Notes under the pieces: generated by a model
Told to the model about the DNA's origin: nothing
The model's input: only the letters and a program-made list of their open reading frames with translations
Databases searched by the model: none
NCBI GenBank assembly: GCA_973895155.1
Contig: OZ316891.1
Location: forward strand, 20,534,169-20,598,168
Length of the DNA: 64,000 nt
Source of the DNA: Marsupella aquatica
Taxonomy: Eukaryota; Plantae; Marchantiophyta
Direction: 5' to 3'
Translations under genes and position numbers: made by a program
Part shown: positions 1,716-37,946 of the stretch, one piece after another
Layout of the letters: each line of letters opens with the position of its first letter
Numbering within the stretch: position 1 is the first letter of the stretch

Positions 1716-4626
1716 TTACGACCCATTACTAAAATCAGCAAACATGGCTTCATATATTTCTTTATATGTCTCACGTGATAATGCTGCCTCCTTCATCTCA
1801 TGATAAGTGAGCCTGGAGCTTTCTTCGATCATGCTCGAAACGTCTCTGCTACTAAGGAAAGAAACCACTTGCCTCATGTTGGGCCTCATCTTGCCATCTT
1901 CTTGCATGCACAGCTTGGACAGATCGACCAAGGTCTCCAGTTCATGGGCATGGAAATCACCGTTTAGTCTGTTGTCTACCAACTCATGATACAGAGATGG
2001 GCTGCGTAAGTATGGAGCTGCCCAGGAAACCAGTGAATCCGCCTTGTGGACGGCTTGGTGACCCGAGATAAGCTCCAGAAGGACCACACCGAAGCTGTAC
2101 ACATCACTTTTGGGGGAGAAGACCCCGGTCAAGACATATTGTGGATCCAAGTATCCAATGGAGCCCTTCACAATAGTCTCGAATGATTGGAAGGACGTGG
2201 CATCCACTGGGGCAGCTTTGGACAGCCCAAAGTCCGCGAGCTTGGCAGAGTTCGTTGTTGTGAGCAAAATGTTCCGTGATTTGACGTCCCTATGCACAAT
2301 GGGGGGATTTGCTTCATGGTGGAGGTACTCCAACCCATGGGCAACGTCGGCTGCAATTTTGACTCGTTGCTTCCATGTGATCACATTGTATACTCCTAGT
2401 TCCATGGAATTCATAGATTTCTCTGACGGGGAGGGCAACACGGATTGATGGAGCCGATCATAGAGACTCCCATTTGGAAGATACTCAAAGACCAGCATAT
2501 GCCGACCTGCAAAGATTAAATCTAGAGTTAGTCTCTTGACGTTGAGGGTTAGGGTTAGCTAGCTAGCTCCAGTGGCTATCTCCATCAGGAGGCTCAACAG
2601 ACATAATTATGTAAGACTTGAAAACCAGCTTTCGGGTTTATCACATAAATGAATTTCAAATATACATTTTGTGAGTGAATTGATCTGAATTAGGTGTCCG
2701 AGTCCATGGAGGTGATTTGGGATGCCCTCCAAACACTTGCAATTTTTACTTGTACCTCTGTGACTGCAAAATCCAAACAAGTTCACGAGTTGTGGTAATA
2801 AATATTTCAAACGTACATTTTATGAGGGATTTGATCTCATATTAAGTTCGGAATGAATGGAGTTGATTTCAGATGCTTCCTACGCAATTTCAACATGTAC
2901 CTTTGTGGATACAGAATCCAATCAAGTTCACGAGGTGGCGGTGGTGAACTCTCAGCAGGACAGCGATCTCATCCGAAGCGAGGACTTTGGAAGAAGAATA
3001 TGGCCCTCTCGGTTTCTCCACTTTCACAGCTCCCACCGTGCCATCGGGAAAGTCGGCTCTGTACACGGTTCCGAAGCCGCCTTGTCCGAGAACGGAGCTG
3101 AATTTCTTGGTGGCTATTCTCAACTCTTCTAACGAATATAGTCTGGCATGCTCGGTCTTGTACAGACGAGAGTAATATTCGCGTTCTCGACCCCGCTCTC
3201 GACAGCCCCTGATTCTATATACAATTGCTACTATAGCAATGAGACCCACCAGTCCCCCGATTGATCCCGCTACTGCAAGCATAACCCTTTTTGAACCACC
3301 CACTGACTTCTTTCGCTGCACTTCGACCGTGTCAATCATCGGCCCACAAGAACCATTGAAGTTCAAGCTGCTAAAGGAAATCGTTGTTACATTGGCCGAG
3401 GCTTTGAAGGTCACTGTCTGCTGCGTCCATGATGCCGCCATAGTCGTAGCGTTCAAACCCGTGACATTCGTGGTGAATTGGTGTCTTATGTCACTCCCAT
3501 TGATCTGGAGCCCCATCGACGATATGTCCGTCCTCGTCGCATTAGTCACCTGCAATTGCAATCGAGCACCACCTTCGACGTAGGTCGAAGTGCATGCCCA
3601 GTTTGGCCTACCTGGTACGACCTTGACGTCTGGAGGGAACCCAGTCATGTAGAAAGTCAGGACGTACTCTTGCCCAACATCCGTCCTGAACGTCTGACTG
3701 ATCGAGCCATTGTGATCCACGTCCGTGTGCGTATTCAAATGAATGCTGTGCTTCCCATCTTGAGGTGTGAGGAATCCCGTACTCACATAATCGATGGGGC
3801 CGTAGTCAATGACCCAGCCACAAAATGAGAGGTAACTAGGATAAGATTGGTTCCAGGCGCTTGCTGCTATGTTATCCCCTGACAGAATGGTGCTGGTTTC
3901 GAATCCTCCATTACTGATCTGACCCTCCGAGTCGAGCGAAAAGTTCGAGAGCTGAAGCAACCCCTCGGTTGTGAATTGGTTAGTAGATCCTTGAGTAGAT
4001 CTGATAACGAAGTTCGCCGTGGGTAGAAATGTAAAGCTGGACGTGTAGGAAAATTGATCCGAGGGTTTGGAGTAATTGGCGATGAACAGCGGATATGTAT
4101 AATTCTGGTTACTAGGATTCGTTCCCAGATCGGGAGGAGCAGCCAGAAGGTAGTACTGTTGCCCATTTGGATCAACAAGGCCATTTACCAAACTGTGGTT
4201 TTCGTAGGTCCACTGCTGCGTGACGACAGACGAATTGCACGTACGGAGTTTTAGGACGCTGGATTCCCAGGACACGGCATCGAGACACAGGTTCCTCGCG
4301 GGGTTCCTCGACGGTATTGAGAAGGCAATGCTCCTGGTAGAGTTCTGGTAAGACCAGACCTCGTTAAACTGAGCGCCATCGCATCTGTACAAGCCCACTG
4401 TCCGGTTCCAGTCCGATTCATGGCCTGGGTGTGTAAACGTTGAATCTCCCAGTGCGTTGATGCAATACTTACAAGTCGGTAGTTCTCCCGAATCAAAGAC
4501 TCCCGTTGTGATCCAGCCGAATTCGGACTCATTCTTTGCTTGCACACGATCCCTGAGCAGTAAGAGACTGACACAAAAAAGCGTCAACATATACGAAATC
4601 CGACACAAGTAAACCATGGACAACAT
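1716..4626 (-). CDS. Receptor-like kinase: signal peptide, ricin-B-type lectin domain, DUF642/galactose-binding-like domain, TM helix, RD Ser/Thr kinase. Exons 4626-2901 and 2506-1716
   Basis: Hydrophobic N-terminus; lectin-like LCLDA and QQWTY; DUF642-like ISNGGFE...GPIDYV...ISQTFRT...CGPMIDTV; TM VMLAVAGSIGGLVGLIAIVAIVY; kinase motifs LGQGGFGTVY, AVK, HRDVKSRNILL, DFGLSK, GSIGYLDPQY. A GT-AG intron at 2900-2507 joins ...IHKG/RHMLVFEY in frame. Confidence 0.93.
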
Positions 4627-4829
4627 TTGAAGCTATTGAATCCCAACACGCTGTGAAGCTATTACCCTCCTGTACGGATATCTATGGCAACCACGATGCT
4701 ATGATCTGTGACCGAATTGAAAACAAAGACCGGACGTAGGGTGGTCGCGGTCGTGCCCCGGCTACTAGAAACGCTACATACGAAACTGGCAATCTTTCAA
4801 TCTTTCAAGGTAAAATAATATTTCTGAGT

Positions 4830-18167: not shown

Positions 18168-18539
18168 TTCACTAACCCAGAGTTGTTGTTATAATTGTCA
18201 TCTTGGTCACTAACCCAGAGCTGTCGGCTCAGTTATCTTTTTGCTCTTGTCTCGTTCACTAACCCAGAGCTGTCGGCTAAGTTATCTTTTTTGCTATTGT
18301 CTCGTTCACTAACCCAGAGCTGTCGGCTCAGTTCATTTTGCTGTAAGAGTCATCTCTTTCACTAACCCAGAGCTGTCGGCTCAATTAACTTCCTACTCAA
18401 TTCATTTTGTTGTAACAGTCATCTCGGTCACTAACCCAGAGCTTTCGGCTCAGTCCTTTTTGCAATAAAAGTCATTGCTCACTAACCTAGAGCTGTTGGC
18501 TCAGTTAACTCTCTGGTCAGTTCATTTTGTTGTAACATT
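18168..18539 (+). repeat. Array of 7 repeats with the conserved core cactaacccagagctgtcggctcagtt and variable linkers
   Basis: Cores at about 18170, 18208, 18258, 18307, 18360, 18429 and 18480. The array is cut by the copia insertion and a partial unit resumes at 36274. Confidence 0.9.
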
Positions 18540-18795
18540 TGTTAGATATTGCTCTAGTCTTGTGACTCATGAGCTAACTATAGTTAGGCTAACTCGGGTT
18601 AGGACTTAGCTATTGTTAGCGGTAGTGCTATTGTGTTTATAGCCAGGGCTGATGCCAGACAATGGTGGAACTTAGGCTGATTGTTACGGAGCTAGTTGAG
18701 AGATAGGGAGAGCTTTTGCTGTGGATGCTTGGAATGGTCGGTCGGCCTAGAGTGCAGTAAAGCTCTTGTGTGTTCCCGTGGACGTAGCCTCATGA

Positions 18796-20099
18796 AGTCT
18801 TTTCACCGGTGGCTAAGTATTCCACAATTTGGATCTTGTGTCAGTTTGTTGTGTTTTTTAATCTGGTGATGGATTAGATGGATGTTGTTACTGCTTTTCT
18901 CTATGGCAACTTGGAAGAGTTGATCTTCATGAGACAACCACTAGGCTTTATGAAGAAGGGCCAAGAGAACTTAGTTTGTAGATTGCTCAAGTCCTTGTAT
19001 GGATTGAAGCAGTCTCCCAGACAATGGAACAAGCGGTTTGATGATTTCATGCTTGCTCAAAGTTTTACAAGAATGGTGTATGATCCTTGTGTGTATACAA
19101 AATCAGTCAAGAATGATGTATTTGGTTTCATCATTCTGGTGATCTATGTGGATGACATGCTGATTGTGGCTAAAGATCAATCTGAGGTTGACAGTCTCAA
19201 GGCAAAATTGAGTGTTGAATTCAGGATAAAGGATTTTGGTAAAGCCAAGAGGATCTTAGGGATGGAGATTTAGGAACTCTGATACTGGACAGTTGTGCTT
19301 GAGTCAAGGCCAGTATGCGAGGAAAGTACTTGCACGATTCAACATGGAGAACTGCAAGCCAGTGAGTATTCCTTTAGCTTCACATTTCAAGTTATCATTG
19401 GCTTTCTCTCCTACGGATGCTGTGGAGAAAGGCCTGATGGCTAAGATTCCTTATGAGAAGGCAGTAGGCAGTCTGATGTATTTGATGACTTGTACTAGGC
19501 CTGACTTGGCCCTAACAATGGGCAAGGTTAGCAGATTCATGTCAAATCCAAGGAAGGTACACTGGGAAGCTGTTAAATGGATTCTCAGGTATGTGAAGGG
19601 AACATAGGACTATGGATTACTATTTGATAACTGATCAAATAGAACGTTAGTTGGCTATGTAGATTCTGATTATGGAGGCTGTCTAGATACAAGGAGGTCT
19701 ACAACTGGGTTTGTATACACTCTTGAAGGAGGATGTATGAGTTAGAAATCTACCTTGCAGAAGTGCATTTCTCAGTCTACTACAAAAGCAGAGTATGTTG
19801 CAGCAGCAGAAGCAACAAAGGAAGCAATTTGGTTGGACAAGTTGATCGCAAAGATGGGTTTAGAGCATGACAAAATGACCCTAAACTGTGATAGTCAGAG
19901 TGCTCTTCACTTGGCTGCTAACCAGGTGATGGATAGCAAAGCACATTGATATCAGATACCATTTTATCAGACAAGCAGTGTCTGATAAAACTTTTGAGCT
20001 AGTCAAGATTGATGGAAAGCTCAATCCCGCTGATGCCTTTACCAAAGTGATTCCTTTAGAGAGTTTCTCAAGATACAGTGCTACTTTGCAGGTTTTGCA
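18796..20099 (+). pseudogene. Copia pol remnant (RT and RNase H) with stops and frameshifts. The last codons and TAG resume after the CACTA insertion at ~30997-31003
   Basis: MDVVTAFLYG, LLKSLYGLKQSPRQW, IYVDDML, VGSLMYLMTCTRPDL, YVDSDYG, STTKAEYVAA, CDSQSAL, NPADAFTK. Several in-frame TAG/TGA codons. Confidence 0.92.
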
Positions 20100-21453
20100 C
20101 ACTACTACATATTTGCCAATTTTGCGAAGGCGTTTTACAAGAGGAAGAAAGCTTTGCAAGATTAATCTCATCGCTAAACTTGCGATACGATACGCATCGC
20201 ACTTAGCGAATCTACACACATCGCAACACATAATTGCGAAACTTAGACCATTGCAACATTTTACGACACTTCAGGTATCGCAAAACATTTCCGAAGCAAT
20301 TACCATTGAACAAGTTAGCGATCTTTACCGCTTCGCAAATTCATTGAGATGCGCCGGAAAACTAAATGGTTGTGAATATTTAAGCATCTCAAAATATTTT
20401 GCGAGTCTTATTGTCTCGCAAATGAGCGATGTTTGTGGAATATATGGCTAACTTGCGATAGTAATAGGCTCGCAAATCCTGTGCCTGTCTAGGGTCTCAT
20501 TTTGTGAATGTTTTGGTTTCGCAACTCTGAGATGGTGGTATCTTCGGAAGTTTGCGATGAGGGGATGATGGCAATTAGGGAGCAGTTAAGTATCGCAAAT
20601 GTAGCGATGAGTTTGCGGGTGTAGGGGTTTCGCAAGATGTTTCGCAAAATATTATGAGCGCTTCAAAGAGGTGGAAAAGGAATGGGATTGGGGAGGGAGG
20701 GTAAAGGAGGGTGGATACATGTAATTTTTAGGGAGGGACAATGAAAAGGAGGAGGAAGGGAATGGGGCTAGGAGGGACAAGGAACGGAGGGATCCAAGAG
20801 GGAGGATACAGGTTTAGGGGGCACAAGGAAATGAGGGAGGAGGAAGGGTATGTAGATATAGTTTTAGGGAGGGTTTGGATTTAGGGAGTGAAAATAAAAA
20901 GGAGGGAGTTTAGGGTTTAGAGAGGGACAAGGAAAGGAGGGAGGGTATTGGTTTAGAGAGGGACAAGGAAATGAGGGAGGTTTAAGGGTATAGGTTTAGG
21001 AGGGAGGAGAGAAGCTAGGTTGTATAGGTAAGAGTGGGGGACAGGGGTGGAAAGTAAGGAAAGTATAGGGTTGAAATAGAAAGCCAGGGGTTGGGACAAG
21101 GAGAGGAAGGAGGAAGGAGGGTTTAATAAGAGGGACAAACAATGAAAGAAAGGAGGAGGGAGGTGGGTACAAGTAATAAGGAGAACAGCTAGGGGGGATT
21201 AGGAAAGCATGGAGGATAGAGGACTACAAGCAACATGAGTTTTCTTTGCATAAAGTCTACCAAAAGGTGTGGTGAGTGTGGGGTAGGGATGGGAGATATA
21301 GAAAACAACATTTGAAAATGATATACTTACAAAACATAAGTTTATTGATAATTGAGAAGCACATATTTCTCCATTCTACCGAGAAGAGAAATCTTCATAT
21401 CATCAAATCTAACTATATATCCGTGTAACTATATATCCACAAACACAGACCCC

Positions 21454-24400
21454 TCAAACTTGGTCCTCATCATCTTCAGGTTGGGACACAACCAGAATAT
21501 CAGGCTTTTCCCCAACGATTGAACAAGACCGTGGCACATATGTGATGACAAGTGACCATTCCTCTGGGTTTGGGGGGTATGGAATATAGAAACATTATTC
21601 CACATGACTTGGAAAAGTGAACGGCTCTGATGTTTGCCAATGAGATGGCTGGAAACTAGTGGCAGACGTCTTCAGTCGTGTAAATCCACACTCATCTTGA
21701 ACCACAGTAGGATTGTTACCTGCAAGGTTCACTTTGAACCACTTGCACTTGAAGACATACTCTTCAAACTTTGATTGTGCATCATAAGATATCACTAGAA
21801 TCTCTTCTACCTTTCCATAATGTGGCACAACATCTCAAATAATATTTGTGTCATGGCGACTGCTGCGGGAATCTTGAGAGAATTGTCCTTGAACTCCACA
21901 ATCAAAGGTACGACCCCTCTTCTCATCAAGGGAAGAAATCCTAAAATCCATCAAACCATAAGGATATGTTACACAAAAATAGACACAAACATATTCCAAT
22001 TAATTGAACACACCAAGAATCTGCCTCTTCAATATACGTGCTTGTATTACAAATGAATTAAATTAAACCAAGTGATTCAAATCAAAGGTTACTAAGGTAG
22101 ATGGAGATCACCTGAAATGTCTTCCTTGTGTCCACATTGCTGTCCTTGTTGTAACCACTCTCAAGGGACCATGAACAATGGTACGAACATCATCTGTGAT
22201 AGCCGGAAAATGTAATACACTCTCTCCCCTGACCACCATGTCATCCACCTCAACTAACGTCTCCTTCATATAGTCAAGGTACTTTGGAAAAATCCTTGGT
22301 CTTGTGCTGTTACTTTTGGCATCCTCATAGAAATCCCTCCATTCTTCCATGATAGTGCTGTTACTCAACATGAATGTGGTCAGTTGTTTCACCTCCACTG
22401 GTGTCAACATGCGAGTTTTCCTAGCACCTGTTAAACGATCCTCTTCATCTTCCCTCTCCTCTACCCAAGTACGGGGAGAGGTACAATCAATTGTGGCCAA
22501 TATGTTACTACAATAGAACATACTCTCAGCTGCTAAGTATCCTGTAGCCATGCTTCCCTCAACCCGTGCACGGTTACGTACATAACCTTTTAACACTGCC
22601 ATGTATCGTTCTAGCCAATACATCCACCGACAATGCACAGGACCTGCAATGGCCACCTCATGAACAAGATGAACAAGTAAATGCACTTGACAATCAAAAA
22701 AGGAAGGAGGAAGGGCCTTCTCCAACTTGCATACCACCTCTGCTGCCAAAACCTCCATCCCAAGGATCTCATCAGTATATATCTCCTTAGAGCATACCCA
22801 TCTCAATAGTCTTCCCAATGACCAAAGGGCATCTTGCACTTCTTCACTTGCCAAACCTATTATGGCCACAGGCAATATGTGCTACAATAACCTATGGTAG
22901 TCATGTATCTTGAGATACCTTGGCCACTTATGATTGTCCTCCATCCCAAAGGCCTTTCAGAGATTGGCACCATAACCAGTAGGAAACCGCATGTCTCCTA
23001 TGCAATTCTGAAACTCCCTTCTCTGGCCAATAGGAAGCACCCATGGAGCTGAAGGTCGATGCCCGATCCCTGTGATAGGATCACTTATGACCCACACGTC
23101 TGGATGCATCTCAAGATCCTCACAAGCCTCCCTGAAGTTAGTGTCTTTCTCTCCATAGAAAGCCTTTATCAAAGCCTTTCCCACATTTCCCTCAATGTGC
23201 ATGGGGTCTAATAGATGGCGGATCTTCAACTCACCCCAATAGGGCAAAGTGGTTAATATACTCCACCTTGTCAAGCCACTACCGTCAAATTGCATGGGAT
23301 CCTCTGGGTCTGCCACTCTTGCAGCCATGTCTTTCCAGTGTGTAAAAGTTGTTGGCTCAGGTACATCACGCTCGTCACCAAAGGGCATATCAATAGAGGA
23401 AAATAGTAGTGGGTCACGCCTCATCTGATGTCCCATTGGAAGAAACTTTGTATGCCCAAGATAAACAATCTTGCGAAGATGTGATGAGTACTTGGCTACA
23501 TCACCAAGGCTTGGGCCACAAGTGGAGCAAGCCTTGTAGCCTTGGGTTTGCAACCCACTCACAAAGCCAAATCTTGGTCATATAAACACACATTATGTTA
23601 GGATTAGCACATGGAAATGAGGGGATACCATGCATTAGAATATGATGCATTTAAACAACAAAGTTCTTACCTGGGTAGTCATGCATGGTCCACATACAAA
23701 CCCCTTTGAGTTTGAAAACCCGTGGGGTACCCCTTGTAGTCTTTCGACCATCATATGCCCATACTCCTTCCCATAATTTCTGGAGTTCCTGAACCAGTAA
23801 TGTCAAATAGGTGTCCATGTTCTTCACCTTCTTTGGCCCTGGGATAATCAAAGATAGCAACAAAAAACCCTTTTTCATGGACAACCATGGTGGAAGGTTG
23901 TAATTCATGAGAACCACAGGCCAGACCGATGTAGGTCTCCCCTTCCCTCCAAGTGAATGAGGGCTAACTCCATCTGATGCCAACCCCAGTCGCACATGCC
24001 GAGGGTCACGCTCAAAATCTGGCCATGTTGATTCCACATGTTTATGAGCAGGAGAGTCAACTGGTAATCGCATGACACCGGGCTCCGAACGATGTTTCTT
24101 GTGCCATACCATCAACTCGGCCAAGTCAGAACATCTATACATGTGCAACAAGCGAGGAATTATGGGGAACCAACGAACTGCTTTCCTTGGTACCTTCTGG
24201 GTTAGCATGTTTGGCTCATACCGTGGCTCATGACACATTGTGCATTCTGTGATATGGGCTGTATCCCCGTGAAATAACATGCAATCATTCACACAGGCAT
24301 GAATAATATGGTAATCCATACCAATGGATGAGAGAACCTTCTTTGCATCCTTCCAGGTCCCTGGCAACACATTCTCCGAGGGTAACATCAAGTCATGACA

Positions 24401-26225
24401 ATATTCAAATATGTCTGATAACATAGAATTGCTTGTCTTGTGTTTGGCTTGAATGTTCAAGAGCCCCAATATGGCAGAAAGACGGCTTAACCGAGCACCC
24501 TCAAAAATAGGTGTTCGAGCATGTTCCTCTGCCTCTTTCCATTGTTGTTGTCCCTCTGGAGTATGTTGTGGCCATGGGTCATTTGAAGGGCCAACCTCAT
24601 GACCAATGTGAGGCACATCATCCTCAACATCGGCACCAAACCAATCAACCATGAAGTCATCCATGGCTCTATCTTGATCATGCATGACCTGGTCATCAGT
24701 CCGAGGTGCGGCTTCCTCATCAGCACCACCTACATCATTACTTGATGAGGAATCACCCTCTGATGGTTCTCCCTCTTCTGGCATACCCATCTCCCGATAT
24801 GTTGCTCTCAACCTTCGTGGTAACATTTGTTGAGATGGTTGCGCATTCTATGCACATTACAACCAAAAAACCTCCTCATGTATATTTGACCAAGTACAAC
24901 AAATTAAAATAGACTTAACACCATTCATTCAAGACATTAAGAATTAAAGTAAATGCATGGGCTAAAACCTTATTACTCCAAAATGAGCCCAAAGGCCATA
25001 TATATAATAGTAAATGGGAAGTCCAAAATAGGTGCAAGAGGATAAAGGACATGATTTCCTAATCCCACTCATAGTGTGTGAATAACTCATCTCCTGCTCT
25101 AATGGTCCTAGTAGCAAGAACTAAGCAATGGTCCTTATGATATGTCGTGCCATATGGTGCCGGCATTGGACCATCAGTAAAAACCCACTCACAATTGGCC
25201 CTACGCTTGGGCCGAGTCCCCACAGTACTATTTATGAAACCAGCAATATTCCCATTATGTATGGGATCACCATCTATCACCCGCTGCTCACTATACATTC
25301 TAGTGCTACCATCAAAAGTATCCATCTCTAGAGCATATGTTTTCCACTCAGGATGTTGTGCAAGGATCATGTTCCAATGTCTTCTCTTGTAGATGGGTCC
25401 ACCGTATGGGAACAAAATAGGACCCTCTCTACCACGAACACTTGACCCACCCTCCTCATCCATGATGATATCCTCACAAGCAAATACTCCATATCCATGT
25501 CTCTCTCCAAGTGTGGAAGTTTTCACAATCCAACGTCTACCCCAAACCACAATCTCCTCATCAAAATCTGTAAAATAAGGCAAGCCAAGAGTGATAGGTT
25601 CCCAATCCTTGATGATAGAGGCACACTTGCCAGTGAATGAACAAACACCCCACCTACCCTGAACTAGTGTTCTGGATGGGTCATTGGGTGCTCGTGGCCT
25701 CCTGTTGGATTGGGGCCTGGACCGGGGTCTTCGTGTCTCAGTGGGCACATGAGGGTGTTCCCCTTCTGTCCCATGACTGGTACTAATTCCCAAACCCAAG
25801 GCTTGTGAAAGTGCATTGCCTATAGCATCTAAAACTCCTTGTGATGGGACATAGGGTGGTGGTGTCACCAATCTACGCATACTGGATCCCTATTCCATGC
25901 AAACACCCACAAACAACCAAATGTGCAAACCATATGTGTAAACATTGATTCACCTCTAAAAATAACAGTAAAGAACGGCAATCAATTGAAACAAACTTAC
26001 CATATGGGATGAAGAAGCCCCGGGAGTAAGACCTCTATGACGTCCATATCTCTCAATATGTTGAGCACACACATAAGATTTTTGAGAAATTTGGCCCACA
26101 CATCTGGTGCAGTCACAAAGTCTTCGGGGTGGACCACGAGGACCAGTAACCTCGGGCTGAGGAGGAGGGGGTATATCGTCATCGGAGGAGTACTCACTAT
26201 TGGATAGTTTAGAGGAAGAGGACAT
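21454..26225 (-). pseudogene. CACTA TnpD/Tnp2 (Transposase_21-type) transposase, disabled. Exons about 26225-26001, 24847-23671, 23573-22111, ~21960-21454
   Basis: Cys-cluster first exon (LCDCTRC), IHACVNDCMLF, RLGLASDG, SVWPVVLMNYNLPPW, MHDYPG, HLLDPMHIEGNV, PPSFFDCQVHLLVHL, RWMYWLERYM, FKCKWF. Premature stops near 22957, 22885 and 21595. The acceptor at 23575-23574 reads AA instead of AG. Confidence 0.9.
25059..25889 (-). CDS. SET-domain protein exon inside CACTA transposase intron 1 (putative lysine methyltransferase)
   Basis: Uninterrupted 273-aa ORF with SET motifs VKTSTLGERHGYGVFACEDI, YGGPIY, IDGDPIHNGNIAGFINS, ANCEWV, LVLATRTIRAGDELFTHY. AG acceptor at 25891-25890 is in phase 0 with the exon-1 donor at 26000. 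Confidence 0.82.
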   Translation of the reverse strand, partial: GSSMRRLVTPPPYVPSQGVLDAIGNALSQALGLGISTSHGTEGEHPHVPTETRRPRSRPQSNRRPRAPNDPSRTLVQGRWGVCSFTGKCASIIKDWEPITLGLPYFTDFDEEIVVWGRRWIVKTSTLGERHGYGVFACEDIIMDEEGGSSVRGREGPILFPYGGPIYKRRHWNMILAQHPEWKTYALEMDTFDGSTRMYSEQRVIDGDPIHNGNIAGFINSTVGTRPKRRANCEWVFTDGPMPAPYGTTYHKDHCLVLATRTIRAGDELFTHYEWD

Positions 26226-26329
26226 ATCCACTGCCACATTACATTGCATGTAGGGCGTGATTAGGAAAAATTAGGCCATATATAAAGCGATTTTAAAAAA
26301 AATGAACTCAAAAAACAATTAGGTTGGTT

Positions 26330-27400
26330 TATACATGGGGTTTTATTACCCTTTTATATTTGTTAGCATGAAACCCAAATTAAGGTGAGTGTCATGCAAG
26401 AAGAAACCACATTATAACCTTTGGGAAAATTGTAATACCCTATGTCCTAAGTGAGGTTAGATTATTACCTGAATGAGACCCGGGCTCAACAGTGCCTATA
26501 GGTCACGTGGCTTTTGGAACATTTGCCAAATCTAGAAGTAGGAGGAAAATACTGGAAACAAAATGTAAGTTTGGATGGTAATTAGCAGCCGTCAAGTTGT
26601 GGAATCTTAGACATTTACCCACATATATCATGACACAACAAAGTTTAGGGCAAGCATAAAAATCTGTACTAACAACATTGACTGTATACATGATGTTATA
26701 CCTTTTAGATGCCCGGGTTCCCACAATGCATATGCATTAGACAAAAGTTGAGGTAGTAGTGTTGGCCCTGCGTTGTATCATGATTACATGGGTTTTCCCC
26801 TCAATTGTTAGCATAAAACCCTAAACCCTAAACCCTTATCCCCCCTCGAGTGAAAGGTGAGTGTCATGCAATAAAAACCCACCCTAGACCCCTGGGAAAA
26901 CTCTAAAGGCCTAAGCCCAGAATGAAGTTGGACAATAATTACCTGAATGAGATCCGGACTCAATAGTGCCTGTAGGTCGTGTGGCTCATTGAACATGAGC
27001 TGAATCTAGAAGCACGAGGAAAATACTGGAAACAAAAAAGTAAGTTTGGATAGCCATTAGCTTCTCTCAAGTTGTAGACCCCCAAACATGTGCATATAGA
27101 TATTCTTGCACAACAAAGAAGGGCAAGGTTTATGAACAATCTCTTTATCAAATCCTGCTAACATACATGTTTAAATATACCTTTTAGATGTCCGGGTTCC
27201 CACAATGCATATGCATTAGACAAAAGTTGAGGAAGCAGTGATGGTCCTGCACTGGATCATGATTACATGGGATTTCCCTCAATTGTTAGCATAAAAACCA
27301 AAACCTCATCCCGCTTCAAGTGAAAGGTGAGTGTCATGCAATAAAAACCCACCATAGACCCTTGGGAACTCTAAAAGCGTAAGCCAATGAAGTTAGCAAA
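26330..27400 (+). repeat. Internal CACTA tandem repeat (~450-480-bp unit, about 2.3 copies)
   Basis: tgttagcat.aaacc...aaggtgagtgtcatgcaa at about 26361, 26806 and 27284; ataccttttagatg.ccgggttcccacaatgcatatgcattagac occurs twice. Confidence 0.88.
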
Positions 27401-28138
27401 AACCTAAATGGTCAATTCCCTTCAACCATCCTATGCTTCTCTCTACCATAATTATATGCCACCCCTCTTGGTTACCCTCCTAAGATACCATAAAAGTAAC
27501 CCAAGATACTATAAAATTGAAACCTCTCTTTCAAACCCTCCTAAGTTGGCCTAAACCCCAAAACCCAAAACATAAAACCCCTCCTAGCTCTTACCCTCCA
27601 ATACATATAACCCCAACCTTCATAAATAAAACCCCCCTGCAAACCCAAAACATAAAACCCCTCGTATCTAAGCCAATCTAAGCCCAACCTTCACAAAAGA
27701 AACCCTCCCCTAACCAGGCCAAACCCCCTCCTCTTACCCTGCAATATAACTCCTTCAATTTTCTAACCCCCCCAATCCTTATCTCATCACATCCCACTAA
27801 AATGCAACATAATCCTCTACATCTACCCCATTTAATGTTCATAAGCCCCCTTAGTATCCCTAACAACACATCAAATACGTATGCGAGACGGGGGTTATGG
27901 CAAAACCAAATAGCGAAGGCTTTTGCGAATCTTGAAGCTTCGCAAAGATAGAATTTGTGAAGCTTTTTGCGAAGGCCGATGCATCGCAAACTGCGATGCA
28001 AAACGAATCGCAAAGCCCAATATTTTGAATCCTTATGGATTGCCGAGCGCGGACAAGGCGGATTCAGTTCATTCAGGCCTGAGGAGAGCAACGAGGGCAA
28101 GGGCGGAGCGATGGCGAGCGAAGAGGGGACTGGTGGTG

Positions 28139-30215
28139 ATGGAGGGGCTTCTGGCAGCAGCGGAGGCAACCAAGGAGGGGGATCGATTGAAGGCGATTGT
28201 GGATGAGCATTTTTTGGTTGCACAGTTGAGTCAAATTGATTTCACCAGTCCAGCAGGGCTGGCATCATTGAGTGCCCTTCTGGGCCAAGCCTTGCAAGCA
28301 GGTCTCATTGCAGGACAAGCAGCAGTGGAGGAGGATGCAAGGAAGGCAGCAGAGCAGGCGGCTGCTGAGAGGAAGCGAAAGAGGGACGAGAGAGCTCAAG
28401 CTGGAGTGCTCTCGCCTCAAGCATTGGAAAAGAAGAGGAGGAAAGATGAGAGAGACCTGATCAGGAAACAGAGGGAGGAGCAAAGAAAGAAGGAGGCAGC
28501 AAGGAGGAAGCTACCTCTGATTACTTTAGAGGATGAGGGGATTCCCACCGAGCTTGCTTACAATGGGGCCAAGAGCACAATCAGGCACATTGTATCCACA
28601 AATTTTGCAAGAGGAGTCGAGTGGGGCACTCGCTCAAAGGCAGAGCAGAAGCGAGTCATCAATCAGGTGAAAGATGCATTTCGAAATGGAGGAGAGATGG
28701 ATTCACAGTGGCTTGCTGACAAAATTTCAAACTCCATGTCACAAGCTAGATACCATGATAGAATGAAGATCAGGTCTCACCTTAGAGATTTGGAGGAGTA
28801 TAGGAATTTGCAGAGGCCGCTGCAATTCTCAGAAGATATCTGGCAGGCCTTCTACCAGACAGAGGTGAAGTTGAAAGCAGCCAGGCTCCTCAATGATTTC
28901 ACAGAGAAGCTGGCAAAGGCTCGAAGGGCAAAGGAGGCCGGGAAGTCTGACCGGGACCTGAAGGTGATGGAGCAGAAGGTAGCCCAGCTCCAGCAGGTTG
29001 TAGCAGAAGTAGGCGATCCACCCAACAAGTTCCTGAAGGCAGCTGAGCGAGTCCGAGACAAGCCCAACATCACCCACAGGCTGGGTCAAGGTGGCCTCCC
29101 CGGCCTCAAAGCAGCATTCGTGAGTGCACCTCCCTCTCCTCCCTTGACTTCTTGCTACTCCAATTCCTATTCCAACACACCTGCAATGAGCCAACTCTTT
29201 CTTGCATTTCCACCAAGTAGTTACAATTAGACTTGTTGTGTCAGATTAGGTCACGTACAGTTGCTTCCCTCTCGGGTTTTTGCCATGACAGAGTTTGCGA
29301 TACATTTGCGATGCGGGTAGCTTCGCAAATCCTTCGCAAACCTTATTATGCCCTTTTTTGCTTACGTTTGCGAAGGCGTTGCAAAGACGTTCGCATCGCA
29401 ACCAGCTTCGCAAACGTAATTGTCCTTATGATTGCGAAGCTGGCGCCTTCGCAAAATTTCAAAAATTTGAATTTTTAAATTTTCCGATCGTTTAAGTGTT
29501 CTTTGAGGGTCTTCCCCATATATGCCACCCTCCATAACCCCAAAACCTTGATGCACCACCCCACCAACCCCAACAAACCCCCTAATTTTTAGAAGCCATG
29601 TGAATCGGGTTATGGGTTGGTGTTAACCCAATTGTGCTGGTTTTGTTTTGGCTTAGTACAAGAGGTACAAGAGGAAGATTACGGCGGCTGAGATGGAGGT
29701 GGGCCAGAAACATGGGAAGGAGCATCTCTTTCAGCAAGTTGATGAATTATTGGTGAGAATTTTTAGGTTATTACATTCATTGCAATTTTGAATGAATATC
29801 TCTTTTGTTCACACTTGTAAAGAATATGAGACTAACAGACACCCTGGTTTGCTAATGGAAGCAGGGAGGGGAGGATGGTGACTCCCATACCGAGGGTGGC
29901 ACCGATAGTAGTGATGAGGATGTGGAGGGGACAGGGGAGGGGAGCACAGCTCCTGCTACTCAAGCCAGGCCAACTAGTACTGGAGACCAGTCATTTGCAT
30001 CAGCACGTTCCAGTGGTGCTGGGGGTGGTAGCGCGGCAAGCCAGGGCGGTGGAGGTGGGGATGAGGATGAGGATGAGGATGAGGATGACCCCGAGGGTGA
30101 CCAAGAGGAGGAGGAAGTCCAGGTTGCACCCCCCCAAGAGCACACAAGGGCAAGGAGAAGGCCAAGGGGAAGAAGGCAAGGAGGGGCAGGAACACTCCTT
30201 TCTAGCTCGATGTAG
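28139..30215 (+). CDS. CACTA accessory ORF2 (TnpA/Ptta-En-Spm-like), divergent from the transposase. Exons ~28139-29119, 29657-29752, 29865-30215; start uncertain (alternative ATG at 28111 would need a frameshift)
   Basis: Long charged coiled-coil ORF with NLS-like KRKR/KKRRK and an HRLGQGGL motif resembling the H-x-x-G motif of En/Spm TnpA-like proteins. GT-AG junctions join the three exons in phase 0. Acidic low-complexity tail. Confidence 0.65.
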
Positions 30216-31402
30216 ACAAGTTGTAGCTAGAGCACTTACATCGAGTTCACATGTATAGCGATCAGCATGCATGGCCGTGGCACTTTACCTAAGGGTTTTT
30301 ACCCTTCCATTTTGTAACTTTTGTACTTTTTCAGTAATGCCATTTTAATTGCGGCAGACTGGGTCAACATCACTTTCCTCCCTCCTTCAAAACCCATGAA
30401 TGGTCTCCCTCACCCTCACCCTAACCCAAATACACAAAAACCCATGAAATATACATTTTGCAAAGCTTTTGAGAACCAACCCCCATCTCAAAGAGCCACG
30501 GTGAACGTATCGCAACCATTCCGAGGAGAAACGCATCGCAACACTTGCGATGTTGTCTAAATCACAACCCTAGCAAAGACTTCCTCTCCACACGTTTGCG
30601 AGTTAAATGCCTTCGCAACAAAGCGGTCATCCGCTTCTCGCAATCTTACGAGTTTGTTTGCATCGCAAGTTATAGAGAAATTTAACATCGGAAATTGCTA
30701 TGTAAATGTTATCGCAACGCGAGCGATTCATTTGTTCTCACAAAATAATGAAATTTGTCATTTCTCAATATTTGCAAGGACAGTACCGTCGCAACGTTGC
30801 GAAGATGTTGCGACGTATTTAGAATCGCAAGTTGCGAAGTAGTTGCGAAGGGCCGTTTGCGAAGAATTTGAGATGGGAAGTAGCGAAGACGTTGCGATGC
30901 GAGTAAGTTCGCAAATTGGGTATTTTGGATTTTGTTTCCTTTGTATGATGCGAAGGGTGGTGGTTCGCAAAAGAGGTGCATAGTGTTGTAGTGGCAGTTG
31001 TAGTGCAAGTAGAGTTATTTAGCAATGTATGACTATCTGTATATGGATTGCTCATTCCTGTTTGGCTACGGCTTAGTTCTAGTTAACCCTTAGTTAACCC
31101 TTGTGGTTTTTAGGGGGAGACTTGATTTGGTGATTGTCTAGAACTTCCCGCTGAGGATTCCATATGGTAGCATTTAGTCCAGTCCCCAAGACAAGAGTCA
31201 AGGGGAGTTTGTTAGATATTACTCTAGTCTTGTGACTCATGAGCTAACTACAGTTAGGCTAACTCGGGTTAGGACTTAGCTATTGTTAGCGGTAGTGCTG
31301 TTGTGTATATAGCCAGGGCTGATGCCAGACCCTGGTGGAACTTAGGCTCATTGTTACAGAGCTAGTTGAGAGATAGGGAGAGCTTGTGCTGTGGATGCTT
31401 GG

Positions 31403-34400
31403 TGTGATGCCTAGCCAGGAATCACTAGGCCGGTTTACATGGTAAAAGCAGGAGTGTACCCTGGAAACACCTTAGTATAGTAACAAGACAAGGAAAATAT
31501 AAACAATTAAGGGTGACTATGGAACCCGGGCCGAGGCCGAAAGTAAGGACGCTGGGGGAGAGAACACGATTAGGGTTAGGGCGCGCTAAGCGTCGGCGGC
31601 TAGGGGTGACCAACGGGAGGAAAGACCAGAGGAGGAGAGGGGTAAGGACCACTCGCGAGGAATAGTGGCTCATTTGCAAGCACGAACTGGGCAGACGACT
31701 ACGGGAGGCCAAATACTGTCAGCTGCTTAGGCAAGCACTCTGGGTGGGAACAGATACCAACAATCAAGTCAAGAAGGGTATGAGCAACGTCAATCAAGCG
31801 ACACATTTTTGGGGATGCCTGTTCGAACGGGCAACTGAGTACATTGGGACTTACGAGGATGAAGAATCAGAGAGAGCAGCTCAAGAACGGCAAGAGCTCG
31901 CTCGATTGTGGGAGCTATAGAAGTCTGCCTTCTTAGGAGGAGAACTCATCAAGGCTGAGTTCTTGCGGACTCCTACTGCCAATCAGCTCGATGACCTTCT
32001 GTTTTGCGAAGACAGAATCGTCGGCATTTGGGAAGCCATCAACCGCTGCAACGACGCGCACTGGGAGTTGAAGGGTAGCACGGAAGGGTGGACAAAGGCA
32101 ACTGTGCTAGGAGAAACATCCACGGCAGCCAAGATGAAGAGGAAAGGAAACAACAACAAAGAGGCCACCCCGGCAAAAAGAACGAGGTCGGCGGCACCAA
32201 GGAAACCAGCAGAGCAGCAGAACAAGAGGCAGGGAGAAGCCGAAGAGGAGGAGGTCGATCCCATCAATGCCATTCCAACAAATGATGACACCTAGAAAGG
32301 CTGGGCGGCGACCCTACCAGAGGAAGTGCAATTACATTTTGCACGGGAGGAGGATGCATGCTTTACGGCCATGCAGACCAAGAAGTACCAGGGTTTCATG
32401 GCCGGATCCGGCTTGGAAGCCTTTGTGAGATTACCATGCCTGAAGCCGGAGGTGCCGGACTCAGACTTATTAGAATTTGTGGGATCATGGGAACCCGAGA
32501 CCAATTCCATGAGGGTGTATGGGAAAGATTTCTATCTCACTCCCAAGGTGATTGCCGAGGTGTTTGGCTTGCCGATGGGTAATAAGACCAAGGTTGATAC
32601 CAGGAAGACCTTACCTGACAAGGAGTTTTGGTCGTTCCCAGGACCATCAACAAAGAATGGCTTCTTCCGGAACACCTACACCAACCCGCACATCGGAGAG
32701 ATGATCAATTTCTTGCGGGTGACCATGCATTGTAACTTGCCGAGGGCAGAGATTGGCAAGGCTCAGGTCTACCTAGCAGAAAGGCCAGATCCAAGCCAGG
32801 ATTACAACGGGTACCTCCTCAACCAACTGAAGAAGATCTTGAAGGAGGAACAGCAGGCGATCGGCGTGGGAAGCGTGTCCCGGCTTGGCTATCACATGTC
32901 GCTGTTGTGCCGGTATGCCATAAGTCAAATCTTTGCCCCAGTACTTCCCCTATGTGCAAGGGCACTGGAGGAGGTTCCGGAGCAGAGGCCGGCAACAGAA
33001 GAGCCCAACCAGCTTGCCAGTCCTACGATCGAGCAGGTGTTTTGGCCAAGGAAAGAAGACTTGCCGATGCAGCAATCAGGCATGCAGCAATCAGGCTGGA
33101 GAAGGAGACAACGGCACCAGCAACGGCAATGGCACCGGTACAGGACACTGCCCCAGAGGTCGGCCTAACCCGACTCAGGAGGGAAAACCCCTTTACCGGA
33201 GCCAAGGAGAGAAGGAGGCCGGAACACAAGCTGGGAGTGCGAATGTTTGTGGGAGCCTCAAGCCCCGAATCAGAGGCAGAGCAGCTTAAGGCTCCTTCCC
33301 ACGGAGAGCAAAGGGAGAGGACAGCCTGGAACCCAGAGGAGGAACAAGGGCCCGTGATCTGTGAGGCCGTTTTCACTGCAGGACCAGGGGAACAGAGGGG
33401 GAAGCAGGGAGTCCAAGCATTGGAGGAGGCGGTGGAGGACTACAGCAATGATAACTCCAGCTATGGGTCAGATCATCATGTTCCAGGAGTAAGGACCTGT
33501 GGCTGATTTATCCCCACGCTTCCAAGAGTAGTTCGAGGGGACCCCACCCAGCAGAGTAGCCCCGAGTCTCCCCCACCAGAGGTTGCTCCCCCGAGCTTTG
33601 ATGGCATAAAGCAGACGGCACAAGACTTTCAGGAGCGACTTAGGGAGGAAGAGAGGGCAGCCCTGGCTAGGGAGAAAGATTTACCAGGAGGAGATTGGCC
33701 GAAGGACATCAGTCGGCTTGCCGAAAAAAGAAGCAACCCTCTTGCCACCGTAGAAGAAATCCGCAAGGCGGCTTGGGAACAGAGGCCGAGGTGGTTGTTG
33801 CCGATGACTTCTACTTACTCCACCTATGCTAAGGATAGAGCCATGGAGTACGGGGAGATGTGTGGGGACCTGGCGCTCAGCATCTTTGGGGAGGACTTGG
33901 AGCAAGGACCTTTCTTCCAGAGGGAGAGGTTGGAGAAGCACCGATTAGAAGAAGCGATGGCTTTGGAGAGAAGCAAGAAGGACGAGGTCATTCGGCGGCT
34001 TAGGAAGAAGGAAGCCGAGGTGGAAGTCCTGCAGGCGGCCAAGAAAGCCCAAGATGAGCTGCGGATTAAGCGGCATGAGCTAAACATCATGCAGGGGCAG
34101 TTGGATACCGCTCAGTCTGACAATCAGATTATCAAAGATAAACTGACTCGGACCCAAGGAGAGTTGGCCGGCGCAGTCAAGGAAAGAGAGAAATGGAAGC
34201 GGGAGCTAAGGGACGCAGAGGAGGCCCACTTAACCGCCAACAACCGGGCCATGGCGGAGACTCAAAGAAGGGAGAGGGCGTTGAAAGGAGAGCTCGAAGA
34301 TATCCGTGGAGCCCTTGAGCAGAAGGAAGCAGAGTTAGGGAAATCCTATCAAGGGATTATTGCGCTGCAGCAGGAGCTTGCGTCCCTGACAGCCAGCTTC

Positions 34401-36112
34401 AAGGCCGACCTGCGTGAAAAGGACGACCAGCTCGACCAGACTTATGCCAAGATGAATAAGATGGAGTCTGTGGTCGTAGCAGAGCTCGACAAGGAGCTAA
34501 GAGCAACCCAGGAGGAGAGAGCTACCTTAAAGAAAGAATTGGAGGAAGCCAAAAAGGAGCTGGAGGAGGCGTGCAAAGACCTGGACGAGACCCAGGAGGA
34601 GTTGGAGGAAATCACGAGGAAGATGGAGAACCTACAGCGGCGGGCCGACATCCAAACGGAGTGGCTGAAGAAACAAGCCGCAGTATTTAAATGCTTGGCT
34701 TCATCAGGTCCAACTCCAATTGGGGCAACCCAGTTACCAGGGGTAGTATTGGCCGAAGGACAAGCCGAGACACTCACCCCGGTGCCGGAGGTAAGTGGCA
34801 AGGGGAAGGAACCGGCTGTCGAAGTAGGGAAGAAGAAGAAGCGGAAACCTTCTAGGTCTGGGAGTTATACGACTTCTCAAGCCGTTGTGACCGAGAAGAT
34901 AAACCCGGCACCAACCTCCGGCATCGACACGGCGATGGATCCACCAATCCTAGGAAGTGGGGATGGCAAGGCCGAGGCCGGGACAACCAGTAGTGAAGCC
35001 GAGGTACCAGATCCTCCACTAGAACATGTCGGGGAGGCCGTGGCCGATGCTGAGGCCGAAGCCGAGGGTGGACCCAGTCAAGCCGATGAAGAGTTGACTC
35101 GGTCCGGGGCAGGTAATATGTCAGAGGATGGACCGACGGTAGTGGCTGCGGGGGAAGCATTGGGGGCGTCCATTGAGGATCCGCCACTGGTTTCGTGACG
35201 ATGCAAGGGCGCCATTCCTTTTAGGAAGGGCGGACGTGGAGGCAGGAGGCGTGAGTGGGCAGGGCGGGCGCTGATCTCCAAGTTTAGACTAAGGATCAGG
35301 ATCAGGAGACGGCCCTGACACTTAGATTAGTGGGATTGCGGATCCACGAGTAAGGGCGATACTTGTGCTCTTGCCTCGCTATACACAGGTAGATTACAGT
35401 TAGGTAGATTACAGATAAGTAGATTAGGCTTACGTTGCAAGGAATCAGGCGGATCCACAACCAGGATAAGTACCTGGGCTGCGGGGAGTTCGGGGCCTCT
35501 TCTTTAGCAAGTTTTTAGTTGCACCAGCAGGGCTGGGATCAAGTAGTAAGAGAAGCTCTTGGTTAGTTATACAGTGACCCTTGTGTATATTCATGTTTCC
35601 TCATGCCTAAGAACTGAATAGAGTTGGCCTCACGGCTTAGTTTGTAGAGCTTGTGTATGAGATGTACTGTTTGTATGGCAAGTGCATGGTATAACTCAGT
35701 CAGAAGGAGTCATTTTGCTATTTGTGTGTCGCATTAACTTGTGTGAAGAGTGCCCACATCAAAGAAGGGAAGTAGCAAAGGAGTGAGAGATGGATGTGTC
35801 GAGCTGAGAGAGGTCTTAGCGGCTTAACCAAGCCAATTGGGGATCATTTCGGCGGCAGAATCCAAACATACCTAATGGAAGACCAGGAGAGGAATACAAG
35901 GGAGGGCCTAGAATAGGCCGGCTAAGTATCTCATGACCCGATGAAGGATCTGTCCAATATATGTGTGTAAAATGTTAATAGTAGTAGTAGAGGGGATTAA
36001 CAGCATCCCATGCCGCTAAGCCGCAGAAACGGCCTCGTCGAGGATGAAACCTGTGGGAATCGGCTTGTGTGGGGGGGTTTCTTGGGTTTGGGGAGCCATG
36101 GGAAGCACCACA
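31403..36112. mobile_element. 4.7-kb TG...CA element (giant solo LTR or deleted Ty3/gypsy-like derivative) inserted in the copia 3' LTR
   Basis: TGTGATGC...GCACCACA termini (7/8 inverted match) with 5-bp TSD CTTGG (31398-31402 and 36113-36117). Removing it restores the copia LTR as seen in the 5' copy. Confidence 0.85.
31519..35198 (+). pseudogene. Degraded long ORF (~1200 aa) of the TG...CA insert: plant-mobile-domain-like N-terminal half plus long coiled coil and acidic tail
   Basis: ATG 31519, ORF 31963-32295 and ORF 32326-33168 share one frame, interrupted by TAG codons. Frameshifts lead to the 32907-33506 and 33795-35198 frames. LLEFVGSW...RVYGKDFYLTPKVIAEVFGLP resembles gypsy-associated accessory/PMD-like domains (inference). 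Confidence 0.6.
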
Positions 36113-36697
36113 CTTGGTATGGCTGGTCGGCCTAGAGTGCAGTAAAGCTCTTGTGTGTTCCCATGGACGTAGCCTCATGTGGAGGTGAACCACGTATCTC
36201 TTTGTGTCGACTATTGTGCGTTGGATGGTTCATGGGCTTGCCGTTGCGAATGTCGTCTATGCTCAACAACATTGTCATTCTCTAACCCTGTGCATGAGTC
36301 ATCCTCGGAGTCATCAATCTCTCTTTTGAACAGTCTTAAGTTTATTAATGTCCAATGTGGAGTCACAGTTGCTAGAAGAGTTACCAGAAGACTAGCTTAT
36401 ACAACATCAGACATTGGAAATTTTATTTTAGAGAACATAGAAGCAATAACCCCTCATTGTGTAAGAGACGTAGAGTTTCAATTGTTGGGTGATTTTTCGT
36501 CAAGGTAACCATAAAATATTTGCTGGTCCATTTAGAATATTAAAACCCACAGAAAAGACAGGGGAAGAGGAAACTGTTGTGGAGTCAAAAGCCAAGGTTT
36601 TGTTCACTGTGAAAGTAGACGATATATATCCTATCATTTTGTTTGAGCTACGTGACTGTATCTGTTCAACCTCTCGTGAGTTGTGTGCACATTTAAC

Positions 36698-37946
36698 ATG
36701 GCTTCTTTGAAACGTAAAGCTCGTGCTATCATCCAAGAAGATGTTTCTTTAATGGACAGTGTCATGGAACTCAGTATTATAGTGGGATATCTTGGTGTAG
36801 ATGTGCATAGTGAAGAGTTGAGTCTGATGGACACACTGATACGATTGTTTATTTTGTCTAGTAGCTCTAGAGAGAGGAGAGTTAGAGAGTCATTTGCACA
36901 TGCAAATGGTTGTAAGAGCCAGAATCAAATCTGCCAGGTCGTTTGGTGTCCTTGTTAGGAAATACATGGGTTGGTAGGGTGTGAAGAACATGAATCCTGT
37001 AGGTAAAGTGATGTGCAAATCCTTGAGTAATAGACAATTGCATACATTCAAAGGAATGATAGGTTATTGTTTGAAAGATATGGGTAAAACTCATTTCTTG
37101 CATGCAATGTATAAAATTTCTGATGAAGATGTGATTGCAGGAAAACAACTGCATTCTATTTATGTGCGAGCTGATCTTAAGTCCAGAGTGACTTTGACTA
37201 ACAAAAATGTTGTAGAAAGAATGTATGTTTGGTATAAGTATAGGACAGATAGACCTTTGTATGCCACATTTCTTTATACACTAACTGAAATGATGAAATC
37301 TGGGATTTTTATTCTTGCATCTAGTTGGATAATTCCATTAAATGGACAGGGCATGGAAAAATCCAGAATGACATGTCTTTGTAAATGTATAGTTGACCCA
37401 TGCAATGTGACTAAGGTTGAAATTGAAGAAGTTTTTGTACGAAAACCTAGGACTGGCAGTTGGGGAAGATATCATACTGATTCTGAGATTGCAAATGATG
37501 AAGAAGCTTCACCAAGGAGTACAAAAACAAAACTCTCACCCCAAAAGAGTTGTTTTAAGAGATTGAAGGTGAAAACAGAATCTAATGGAAAATCTGTACA
37601 TTTTGATGATCTGTTTACAGAGTCTGTCATTCCTGGAAAGGGAATAACATTTCAGTATCCCCTTGGTGAATATGTATCTGTGAAAGATAGGCATAGGGTT
37701 CCCAAGAATGATTATATGGAGACAATTAATTTGTTGGAAAAGCCTATTGCAGGGGTGAGGAAAGGGAAACAGAAGGTAAGAGATGTGACAGAGCTGGTAG
37801 AATTGTCCTCTGATGATGAGAAATTAGCTTCAGCTGCTGTGTATGAGGATAGAGGCCAAAGTAGTCAAATGAGAAAGGAAAGAGTCTCTATGTTTGGAAA
37901 ATCACTTTCCAAGGTGAAAAGTGAATCATTTCACAAGATTTCATAA
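36698..37946 (+). pseudogene. Replitron-type HUH (Y1) Rep transposase with a frameshift near 36845 and an in-frame TAG at 36975
   Basis: Motif I-like ELSIIVGYLGVDV; motif II ALERGELESHLHMQMVVR (HLH at 36891-36899); motif III LHTFKGMIGYCLKD (single catalytic Tyr, YxxK). No helicase follows, which matches Replitron rather than Helitron RepHel architecture. Confidence 0.82.

Follow-up and report, generated by a model that had tools for sequence, protein, structure and literature searches.

The CACTA (EnSpm) element that lies within the 64,000-nt stretch of the Marsupella aquatica genome analysed here (the window) has a transposase gene whose first intron contains a SET-domain exon, and comparison with related sequences indicates that this exon is an old, stable and selected cargo of its CACTA family, and not a stray capture. 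It is very likely, given the splice signals and the gene models of relatives, that the donor of the first coding exon takes either a near acceptor, which opens the SET exon, or a far one, which opens the transposase, such that both proteins would begin with the same finger. We propose, tentatively and at somewhat short of even confidence, that the element-encoded finger-SET enzyme made from this alternative terminal exon methylates a histone lysine at the motif clusters of the element itself, thereby favouring its expression.

Table 1. Features of the CACTA element and its insertion site, in window coordinates.
Feature	Coordinates	Strand	Description
Target-site duplication, left	20097..20099	+	GCA
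Complete CACTA (EnSpm) element	20100..30993		10,894 bp; interrupts 3' end of a Copia pol remnant
Left subterminal cluster	20122..20647		15 TCGCAA, both strands
Transposase exon 4	21454..21940	-	two stops in window copy
Transposase exon 3	22112..23573	-	end of Transposase_21, DUF4218; dead acceptor and two stops in window copy
Transposase exon 2	23671..24847	-	Transposase_21, LASDG and MHDYP motifs; 1177 nt, no stops
T-rich spacer	24848..25058	-	211 nt, 43% T; ends in transposase acceptor
SET exon	25059..25889	-	stop-free frame, 276 aa; first ATG 25880
Intron between exon 1 and SET exon	25890..26000	-	111 nt, GT..AG, 45% T
First coding exon (exon 1)	26001..26225	-	75 aa; Ser/acidic leader and C-x-C-x2-C-x13-H finger
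Likely non-coding 5' exon	26469..26551	-	AG..GT splice signals; further donor after 26702
ORF2	27914..30215	+	divergent from transposase; long frame 27914-29230
Cluster between divergent genes, likely promoter region	27923..28013		5 TCGCAA
Cluster in likely first intron of ORF2	29295..29454		9 TCGCAA
Right subterminal cluster	30510..30970		18 TCGCAA
Target-site duplication, right	30994..30996	+	GCA

The termini of the element, CACTACTACA from 20100 and TGTTGTAGTG up to 30993, are of the CACTA..TAGTG form and inverted at nine of ten positions, and contigs from four of four runs represent the empty site, joining 20096 to 30994 with three letters in common. The element copy is evidently young, since seven X1 contigs match the window at all but 16 of 4398 letters. 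The transposase is of the TnpD type (Transposase_21 and DUF4218; Pfam E 1e-39 and 1e-34), occupies four coding exons on the minus strand, and retains the C(2)C and H(3-4)H motifs (as defined in PMC12730594) as CSTC and HLLVH. It is broken in the window copy by in-frame stops at 22959, 22884, 21837 and 21597, and by an AA where AG is expected in the exon 3 acceptor (23575-23574). As nearly all contig depth in four of four runs reads another base at 22884, 21597 and 23574, among the 40 of 1170 variants listed, these three defects are evidently private to the window copy. The initial annotation had set an open SET frame against a dead transposase; the four stops and the dead acceptor stand, but the contrast is what chance could readily produce in a young copy. 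Given four stops in the 3125 nt of transposase exons 2-4, 1.06 are expected in the 828-nt SET exon and the probability of none is 0.35, and the 1177 nt of exon 2 are open as well, such that we rejected the open frame as a sign of selection in the window copy. The contigs, from five runs, span introns and empty sites as DNA would, and are uninformative on expression; no clean splice was found among the contig joints listed (15 of 76 and 15 of 27). Rfam returned no match between 18000 and 38500. Pieces identical to the window at 24813-25087 and 25536-25709 occur in runs labelled as three organisms from three studies, which may reflect close relatives, mixed samples or recent transfer.

The SET exon sits on the transposase strand between exon 1 (26225-26001) and exon 2 (24847-23671), its position and uninterrupted frame being as initially reported, and encodes in order a basic low-complexity linker of ~70 aa, a family-specific pre-SET part of ~45 aa, the SET core and a stop. 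Two acceptors, aatag|GGA (25889) and catag|AAT (24847), are in phase 0 with the donor of exon 1, each leading into a long frame, and these frames bear out the predicted product of about 351 residues (75 + 276). The spacer beyond the SET stop probably has two roles, as 3' UTR in transcripts of the SET form and as the last part of the long intron in those of the transposase. The whole arrangement recurs in the related DNA sequence L001, which keeps exon 1, a 111-nt GT..AG phase-0 intron, the SET exon, a spacer of 219 nt and catag|AAT.

Exon 1 (225 nt, terminating ATG|gtaagt) encodes what is probably, to judge from its residues, a minimal transposase-associated Cys3His domain. Pfam gave no match of exon 1 to PF13963, and the relatives P0065 and P0167 match that domain at E 0.03, under the cut-off; against a profile of 36 angiosperm TnpD fingers, exon 1 scores 9.5 bits, a value equalled by none of 500 shuffles (best shuffle 6.2). 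The finger core of the PF13963-type domain is present and its N-terminal helix is missing. Exon 1 also matches the first 58 residues of P0065 (E 3e-5), an 808-aa transposase frame which is itself the second-best match of transposase exon 2. The transposase would require an upstream exon, and the SET proteins appear to carry that exon: in P0136, finger and SET share a single 423-aa frame on a 2141-nt Logan contig, and the finger pattern begins 26 of 229 family proteins, P0136 included. The Calypogeia gene model P0035 contains the junction M|GSSMRR, residue for residue as predicted, and in the Sphagnum model P0062 the transposase part begins with the identical Asn, four of eight residues to the first Met being the same. 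Together, P0065, P0136, P0035 and P0062 point to exon 1 as part of both proteins, its junctions being those of gene models. The gene itself probably starts further upstream than exon 1, the first of its coding exons, because short AG..GT blocks upstream are conserved in L001 (75% and 89% matches); contig joints across diverged spacers fall at 26466, 26512 and 26699. The block that holds the putative non-coding 5' exon occurs twice in tandem, the second time at about 26940-27220 (within 26700-27280; spacing 479 nt, 91% identity over 103 nt).

Linkage of finger, SET and transposase extends beyond the window copy. Finger-SET gene models occur in five Sphagnum species, Calypogeia and Riccia, and the order finger, SET, transposase is repeated in the gene models of Sphagnum, Calypogeia and Riccia. 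Transposase exon-2 sequence follows SET sequence in eight of 229 family proteins; models that run from SET into the transposase (P0021 and P0062 in Sphagnum; P0178, P0203 and P0176 in Riccia) are probably mis-joined predictions, yet they preserve the same order and strand. A weak search for a full-length SET-transposase fusion found none among 6913 candidates of 805-2295 aa. At the DNA level, contigs extend from exon 1 into SET and from SET into exon 2, and where they have diverged it is the exons, and not the spacers, that can be aligned. A word search retrieved 46 relatives, of which those with a named source come from Sphagnum, Calypogeia and Riccia, and a profile search returned 148 clusters at 50% identity; the 19 representatives that were looked up comprise six from Riccia, one each from Calypogeia and Ginkgo, and 11 environmental or Logan proteins. 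Identity across the SET core is 82% to Sphagnum, 84% to Calypogeia and 39-46% to the Riccia models, and exon 1 is 77% identical to the Calypogeia model versus 65-68% to Sphagnum; the N-terminal half of the window protein is nearest a Calypogeia model.

In the one DNA pair compared, the window copy and L001, dN/dS is 0.14 for the SET core (bootstrap 0.08-0.25, 158 codons, dS 0.73), 0.26 for exon 1, 0.48 for the linker and 0.89 for the pre-SET part (0.43-1.88, 43 codons). Sixteen of the best-supported 25 variants listed in the SET exon are silent, and 18 lie at third positions. A dN/dS below 1, to which the initial annotation had pointed as one test of its proposal, is observed in this single pair. 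It is improbable that SET forms a gene apart from the transposase, starting at Met 25880, or that it is neutral captured host DNA, with exon 1 used by the transposase only. Many database proteins do begin at this Met (260-263 aa), as intron-blind callers would give, but L001 has preserved an intron of 111 nt with its phase-0 acceptor, and P0136 has finger and SET in a single frame, both of which speak against a separate gene, and the core dN/dS, the 148 clusters and the want of a close host gene exclude neutral capture. In a tree built by a quick method from 61 rows, fragments excluded, the window sequence, Calypogeia P0002 and Sphagnum fall in one starred set without Riccia; several old paralogous lineages exist, which bears on the question of horizontal transfer between mosses and liverworts. 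Two distant SET relatives lack the finger: P0190 (Calypogeia) has DUF5763-like CCHC repeats, and P0236 (Ginkgo Gb_21150) a Cys/His-rich N-terminus. The SET family may thus ride on other elements, or may have been domesticated in seed plants. No viral relative was found in viral contigs, and a viral origin was rejected, the best viral fold match (FirrV-1-G2, 18% identity) being no better than cellular ones; a bacterial origin was likewise rejected (a single locus with an ordinary NHS-type SET at 24%), and L002 was dismissed as the chance match of a short peptide.

The SET exon is predicted to encode a real SET fold, as first proposed. The Pfam SET profile scores 27.9 bits (cut-off 22.4; E 3.3e-6), the first Atlas match is a Streptophyta SET cluster (0.97), and the AlphaFold model of the SET part (pLDDT 82.8) retrieves 326 PDB chains in Foldseek at E <= 0.001, with SET8, LegAS4 and MLL1 at the top (best E 1.7e-7); among the chains listed, all are SET methyltransferases. 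VIA-align superposes the predicted model on such structures at Z 11-12 and rmsd 2-3 Å over about 120-135 residues, consistent with a SET fold that includes the C-terminal knot. The top rows are tied across PRC2, ASH1L, SET7/9, SET8 and MLL1, which between them methylate H3K27, H3K36, H3K4 and H4K20. The family profile reaches a best E of 0.28 against PDB sequences, a single-sequence search of PDB with the SET core gave chance matches only, and neither AWS, CXC or post-SET Pfam domains nor a post-SET cysteine cluster were found. Neither sequence nor structure ties the family clearly to a single class of histone-methylating enzyme (profile E >= 0.28, structural rows tied), the host classes considered being E(z), ASH1, TRX, SU(VAR)3-9, ATXR5/6 and SMYD, and therefore neither substrate nor sign of the mark is indicated.

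GxG is the SAM motif, and YxG the tyrosine motif, of SET methyltransferases. Across 47 whole-core representatives (out of 148), the corresponding positions are nearly invariant (G132 in 45, G134 in 46, Tyr or Phe at 162 in 47, G164 in 45), as are N220 (41, with Gln in five), N232 (47), E268 (45) and Y273 (42, with four gaps). The GxG motif first noticed in the window frame holds across the family, as do E268 and Y273 of ELxxDY, which supply ELxxxY, in register with SET7/9, SET8 and MLL1 as read from the ends of the alignment ranges. The RFxNHS motif is not matched, the window copy reading GFINST and the family G(F/Y)INS. The initial annotation had taken this NHS-to-NST change as cause for doubt on catalysis, but the weak point lies elsewhere, given that Ser replaces His family-wide (46 of 47), and that LegAS4 of Legionella, which has Phe at this position, methylates H3K14 (10.64898/2026.05.29.728679).

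The main doubt on catalysis is instead the missing post-SET lid. The stop codon follows the last Tyr (Y273) by three residues, the model ends at the equivalent of SET7/9 residue 338, and C-terminal tails in the family are short (<=12 residues in 32 of 37, <=5 in 14 of 37), whereas post-SET is described as always contributing to the cofactor site in cofactor-bound structures (PMC3868588). We nonetheless regard it as rather probable that SET is active, in which case a partner, a second copy or the family-specific N-terminal part would have to close the SAM pocket. If it were not, two splice forms might still be made, with SET as a weak or dead binder that holds a histone lysine, methylated or not, and shields it from host writers or readers, or that tethers the transposition complex to chosen chromatin. 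The lid-less window clade and the His-to-Ser change would suit such a binder; yet the SAM-side residues (G132, G134, N220, E268) are conserved as much as the lysine-side ones, several distant members retain a longer tail with a later Trp, and LegAS4 is active with Phe in place of His, all of which render this reading unlikely. For an active enzyme, the Phe/Tyr switch offers a further clue, since a small residue there permits multiple methylation. At this position, which precedes the final Tyr by two, the representatives have small or aliphatic residues (Ala in 14, Val in 10, Cys in six and Ile in five) and the window copy has Thr, such that di- or trimethylation would be permitted. Separately, model residues 13-23 (25700-25630) form an N-terminal hairpin that aligns in several alignments, by range ends only, to EZH2 from residue 109-110 onward, a region which we take to be the SET activation loop.

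What an active SET would methylate can be weighed from the same observations. The common finger and promoter would place SET together with the transposase, and there is neither a tie to a histone-specific class nor a pre-SET or post-SET zinc cluster, such that the enzyme might act on the transposase or ORF2 protein of the element, or on a host silencing factor, as a transposition switch set by the choice of acceptor. The listed structural neighbours are, however, histone enzymes, and published transposon SET cargo is read, by interpretation in those reports, as histone methyltransferase (PMC12730594; 10.1101/2025.02.11.637652; PMC4067079); a non-histone substrate is accordingly rather unlikely. 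A histone enzyme could equally write a repressive mark, whether self-limiting or as a Polycomb-type reversible silencing that substitutes for DNA methylation. The structural rows tied at the top include PRC2 chains, the small switch residue is compatible with multiple methylation, and bryophytes are reported to repress some transposons with H3K27me3 (10.1101/2022.10.24.513474). Ties within one Z unit hold no class information, though, and the family is recent, with high contig depth in several organisms, and we consider a repressive mark quite improbable. The reading that we prefer, if tentatively, is still that of a mark in favour of expression.

The sequence motifs that might direct such an enzyme are conspicuous. 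The window contains 63 copies of TCGCAA where 19.7 would be expected, a count reached by none of 100 shuffles, and 47 of the 48 copies within the element fall in four clusters, at both ends, between the divergent genes and in the ORF2 intron. The promoter-side cluster is kept in L001 (stretch 38-90, 77% identical, three motifs). Arabidopsis TnpA-Spm1 is reported to bind CCVTCGCAAA at element ends and to activate via DNA demethylases (10.64898/2026.08.24.746577). The exact Arabidopsis 10-mer is found in none of the 48 element motifs and the 7-mer TCGCAAA in 25, and this common 7-mer is only suggestive of a link to targeting. ORF2 likely has a donor after 29120 and two further exons, and its single-sequence model is helical at pLDDT 57. 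It is the obvious candidate binder of the TCGCAA clusters; a TnpA-like DNA-binding role for it would be a guess, and an assignment as TnpA finds no support in Pfam, Atlas, phmmer or Foldseek, which returned no ORF2 matches. Models of a TnpA-TnpD complex have been described (PMC13547354).

In the mechanism that we propose, one promoter would give rise to two proteins, the transposase and a 351-residue finger-SET protein, predicted to act as a SAM-dependent lysine methyltransferase, whose transcript would end in the 211-nt spacer. The finger would take the SET protein where the transposase goes, namely to the TCGCAA clusters at the ends and promoter, either directly or via ORF2; methylation of a histone lysine there would keep the element promoter usable despite host silencing. 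The targeting and anti-silencing step is the weakest of these, and several observations count against the mechanism: the absence of post-SET, the lack of class kinship, the pre-SET dN/dS of 0.89 and the absence of the Arabidopsis 10-mer. Further, Arabidopsis TnpA alone is reported to activate its element via DNA demethylases while H3K9 methylation remains (10.64898/2026.08.24.746577), and anti-silencing is therefore possible without a SET protein. More speculatively, in a version that we would currently bet against, an ancient land-plant CACTA lineage uses transposase exon 1 as the targeting module of its own lid-less histone methyltransferase, which is unrelated to host classes and switched on only inside the element complex at the TCGCAA clusters, and splicing decides between jumping and marking.

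Among known systems, En/Spm of maize and Arabidopsis is alike in its CACTA ends, 3-bp duplication, and Transposase_21 and DUF4218 with what is probably an equivalent N-terminal finger (10.64898/2026.08.24.746577; PMC13547354), and also in its subterminal clusters with the TCGCAAA core of the TnpA-Spm1 site. Some En/Spm families are described as making two proteins from one gene by alternative splicing, as we infer here. In the present element, however, the alternative product is SET and not the HTH protein TnpA, it lies in transposase intron 1 with a coding exon in common, and ORF2 is a separate, divergent gene. Plavaka PAG2 of red algae (EnSpm superfamily; 10.1101/2025.02.11.637652) is also a stable SET cargo, proposed there as a chromatin modulator, and is described as a separate gene, an N6-adenine methylase-SET fusion within a three-gene Plavaka cassette; compared by description only, the element here is instead a canonical plant CACTA with SET fused to the transposase finger. 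The initial suggestion that SET is not standard CACTA cargo thus holds in part: the paper listings and abstracts covered here, which take in neither subscription journals nor Repbase Reports or bioRxiv supplements, describe no SET exon in a CACTA element of land plants, but SET cargo has been published in the EnSpm superfamily. Such families may already be recorded in Repbase Reports. HarbingerS and Phytophthora MuDR (PMC12730594) and proto-Helentron-Pi (PMC4067079) also have their own SET gene, read as counter-silencing, and differ in belonging to other superfamilies and oomycete hosts; the Helentron SET is reported as 50% similar to Clr4 (PMC4067079), whereas the bryophyte CACTA SET reaches only that profile E of 0.28 in PDB. 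VANC of VANDAL (MuDR; PMC6719617) is likewise an element-encoded accessory protein with family-specific motif clusters, but it acts on DNA methylation, has no SET, and its effect has been shown experimentally. SET8, SET7/9, LegAS4/RomA and giant-virus SETs share the core fold and active-site frame at 16-26% identity; relative to these minimal enzymes, the window clade ends soon after its last Tyr, and both its pre-SET part and its insertions are peculiar to it.

Counter-silencing in plants, as shown so far in these sources, acts on DNA methylation or small RNAs (VANC, TnpA, mir820; PMC6719617; 10.64898/2026.08.24.746577). If our proposal is correct, a histone lysine methyltransferase of a land-plant transposon would show directly that an element can write histone marks, a proposition that moss and liverwort models permit to be tested, and a SET working without its own post-SET lid would be new enzymology. 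Hundreds of 'SET domain-containing proteins' annotated in Sphagnum and liverworts (360 members in one cluster) are transposon products, by which counts of host chromatin genes will be inflated.

The surroundings of the element contain further insertions and genes. The Copia remnant that encloses the CACTA element (18538-36179) has a 5' LTR from 18538, with the end of reverse transcriptase almost directly after it, and a 3' LTR from 31208 that is 95% identical to the 5' LTR and split by a 4.7-kb insertion (about 31403-36112), in which a 563-codon coiled-coil frame (33507-35198) belongs to no clear family. A Replitron HUH endonuclease fragment follows at 36978-37946 (Pfam E 4e-8). Elsewhere in the window, a host gene without introns at 52482-54377 encodes an ARM-repeat protein of U-box type (DUF7032 and Arm), and a receptor-kinase-like gene at 1716-4632 on the minus strand places a ricin-B lectin and DUF642 before a protein kinase, an unusual ectodomain combination.
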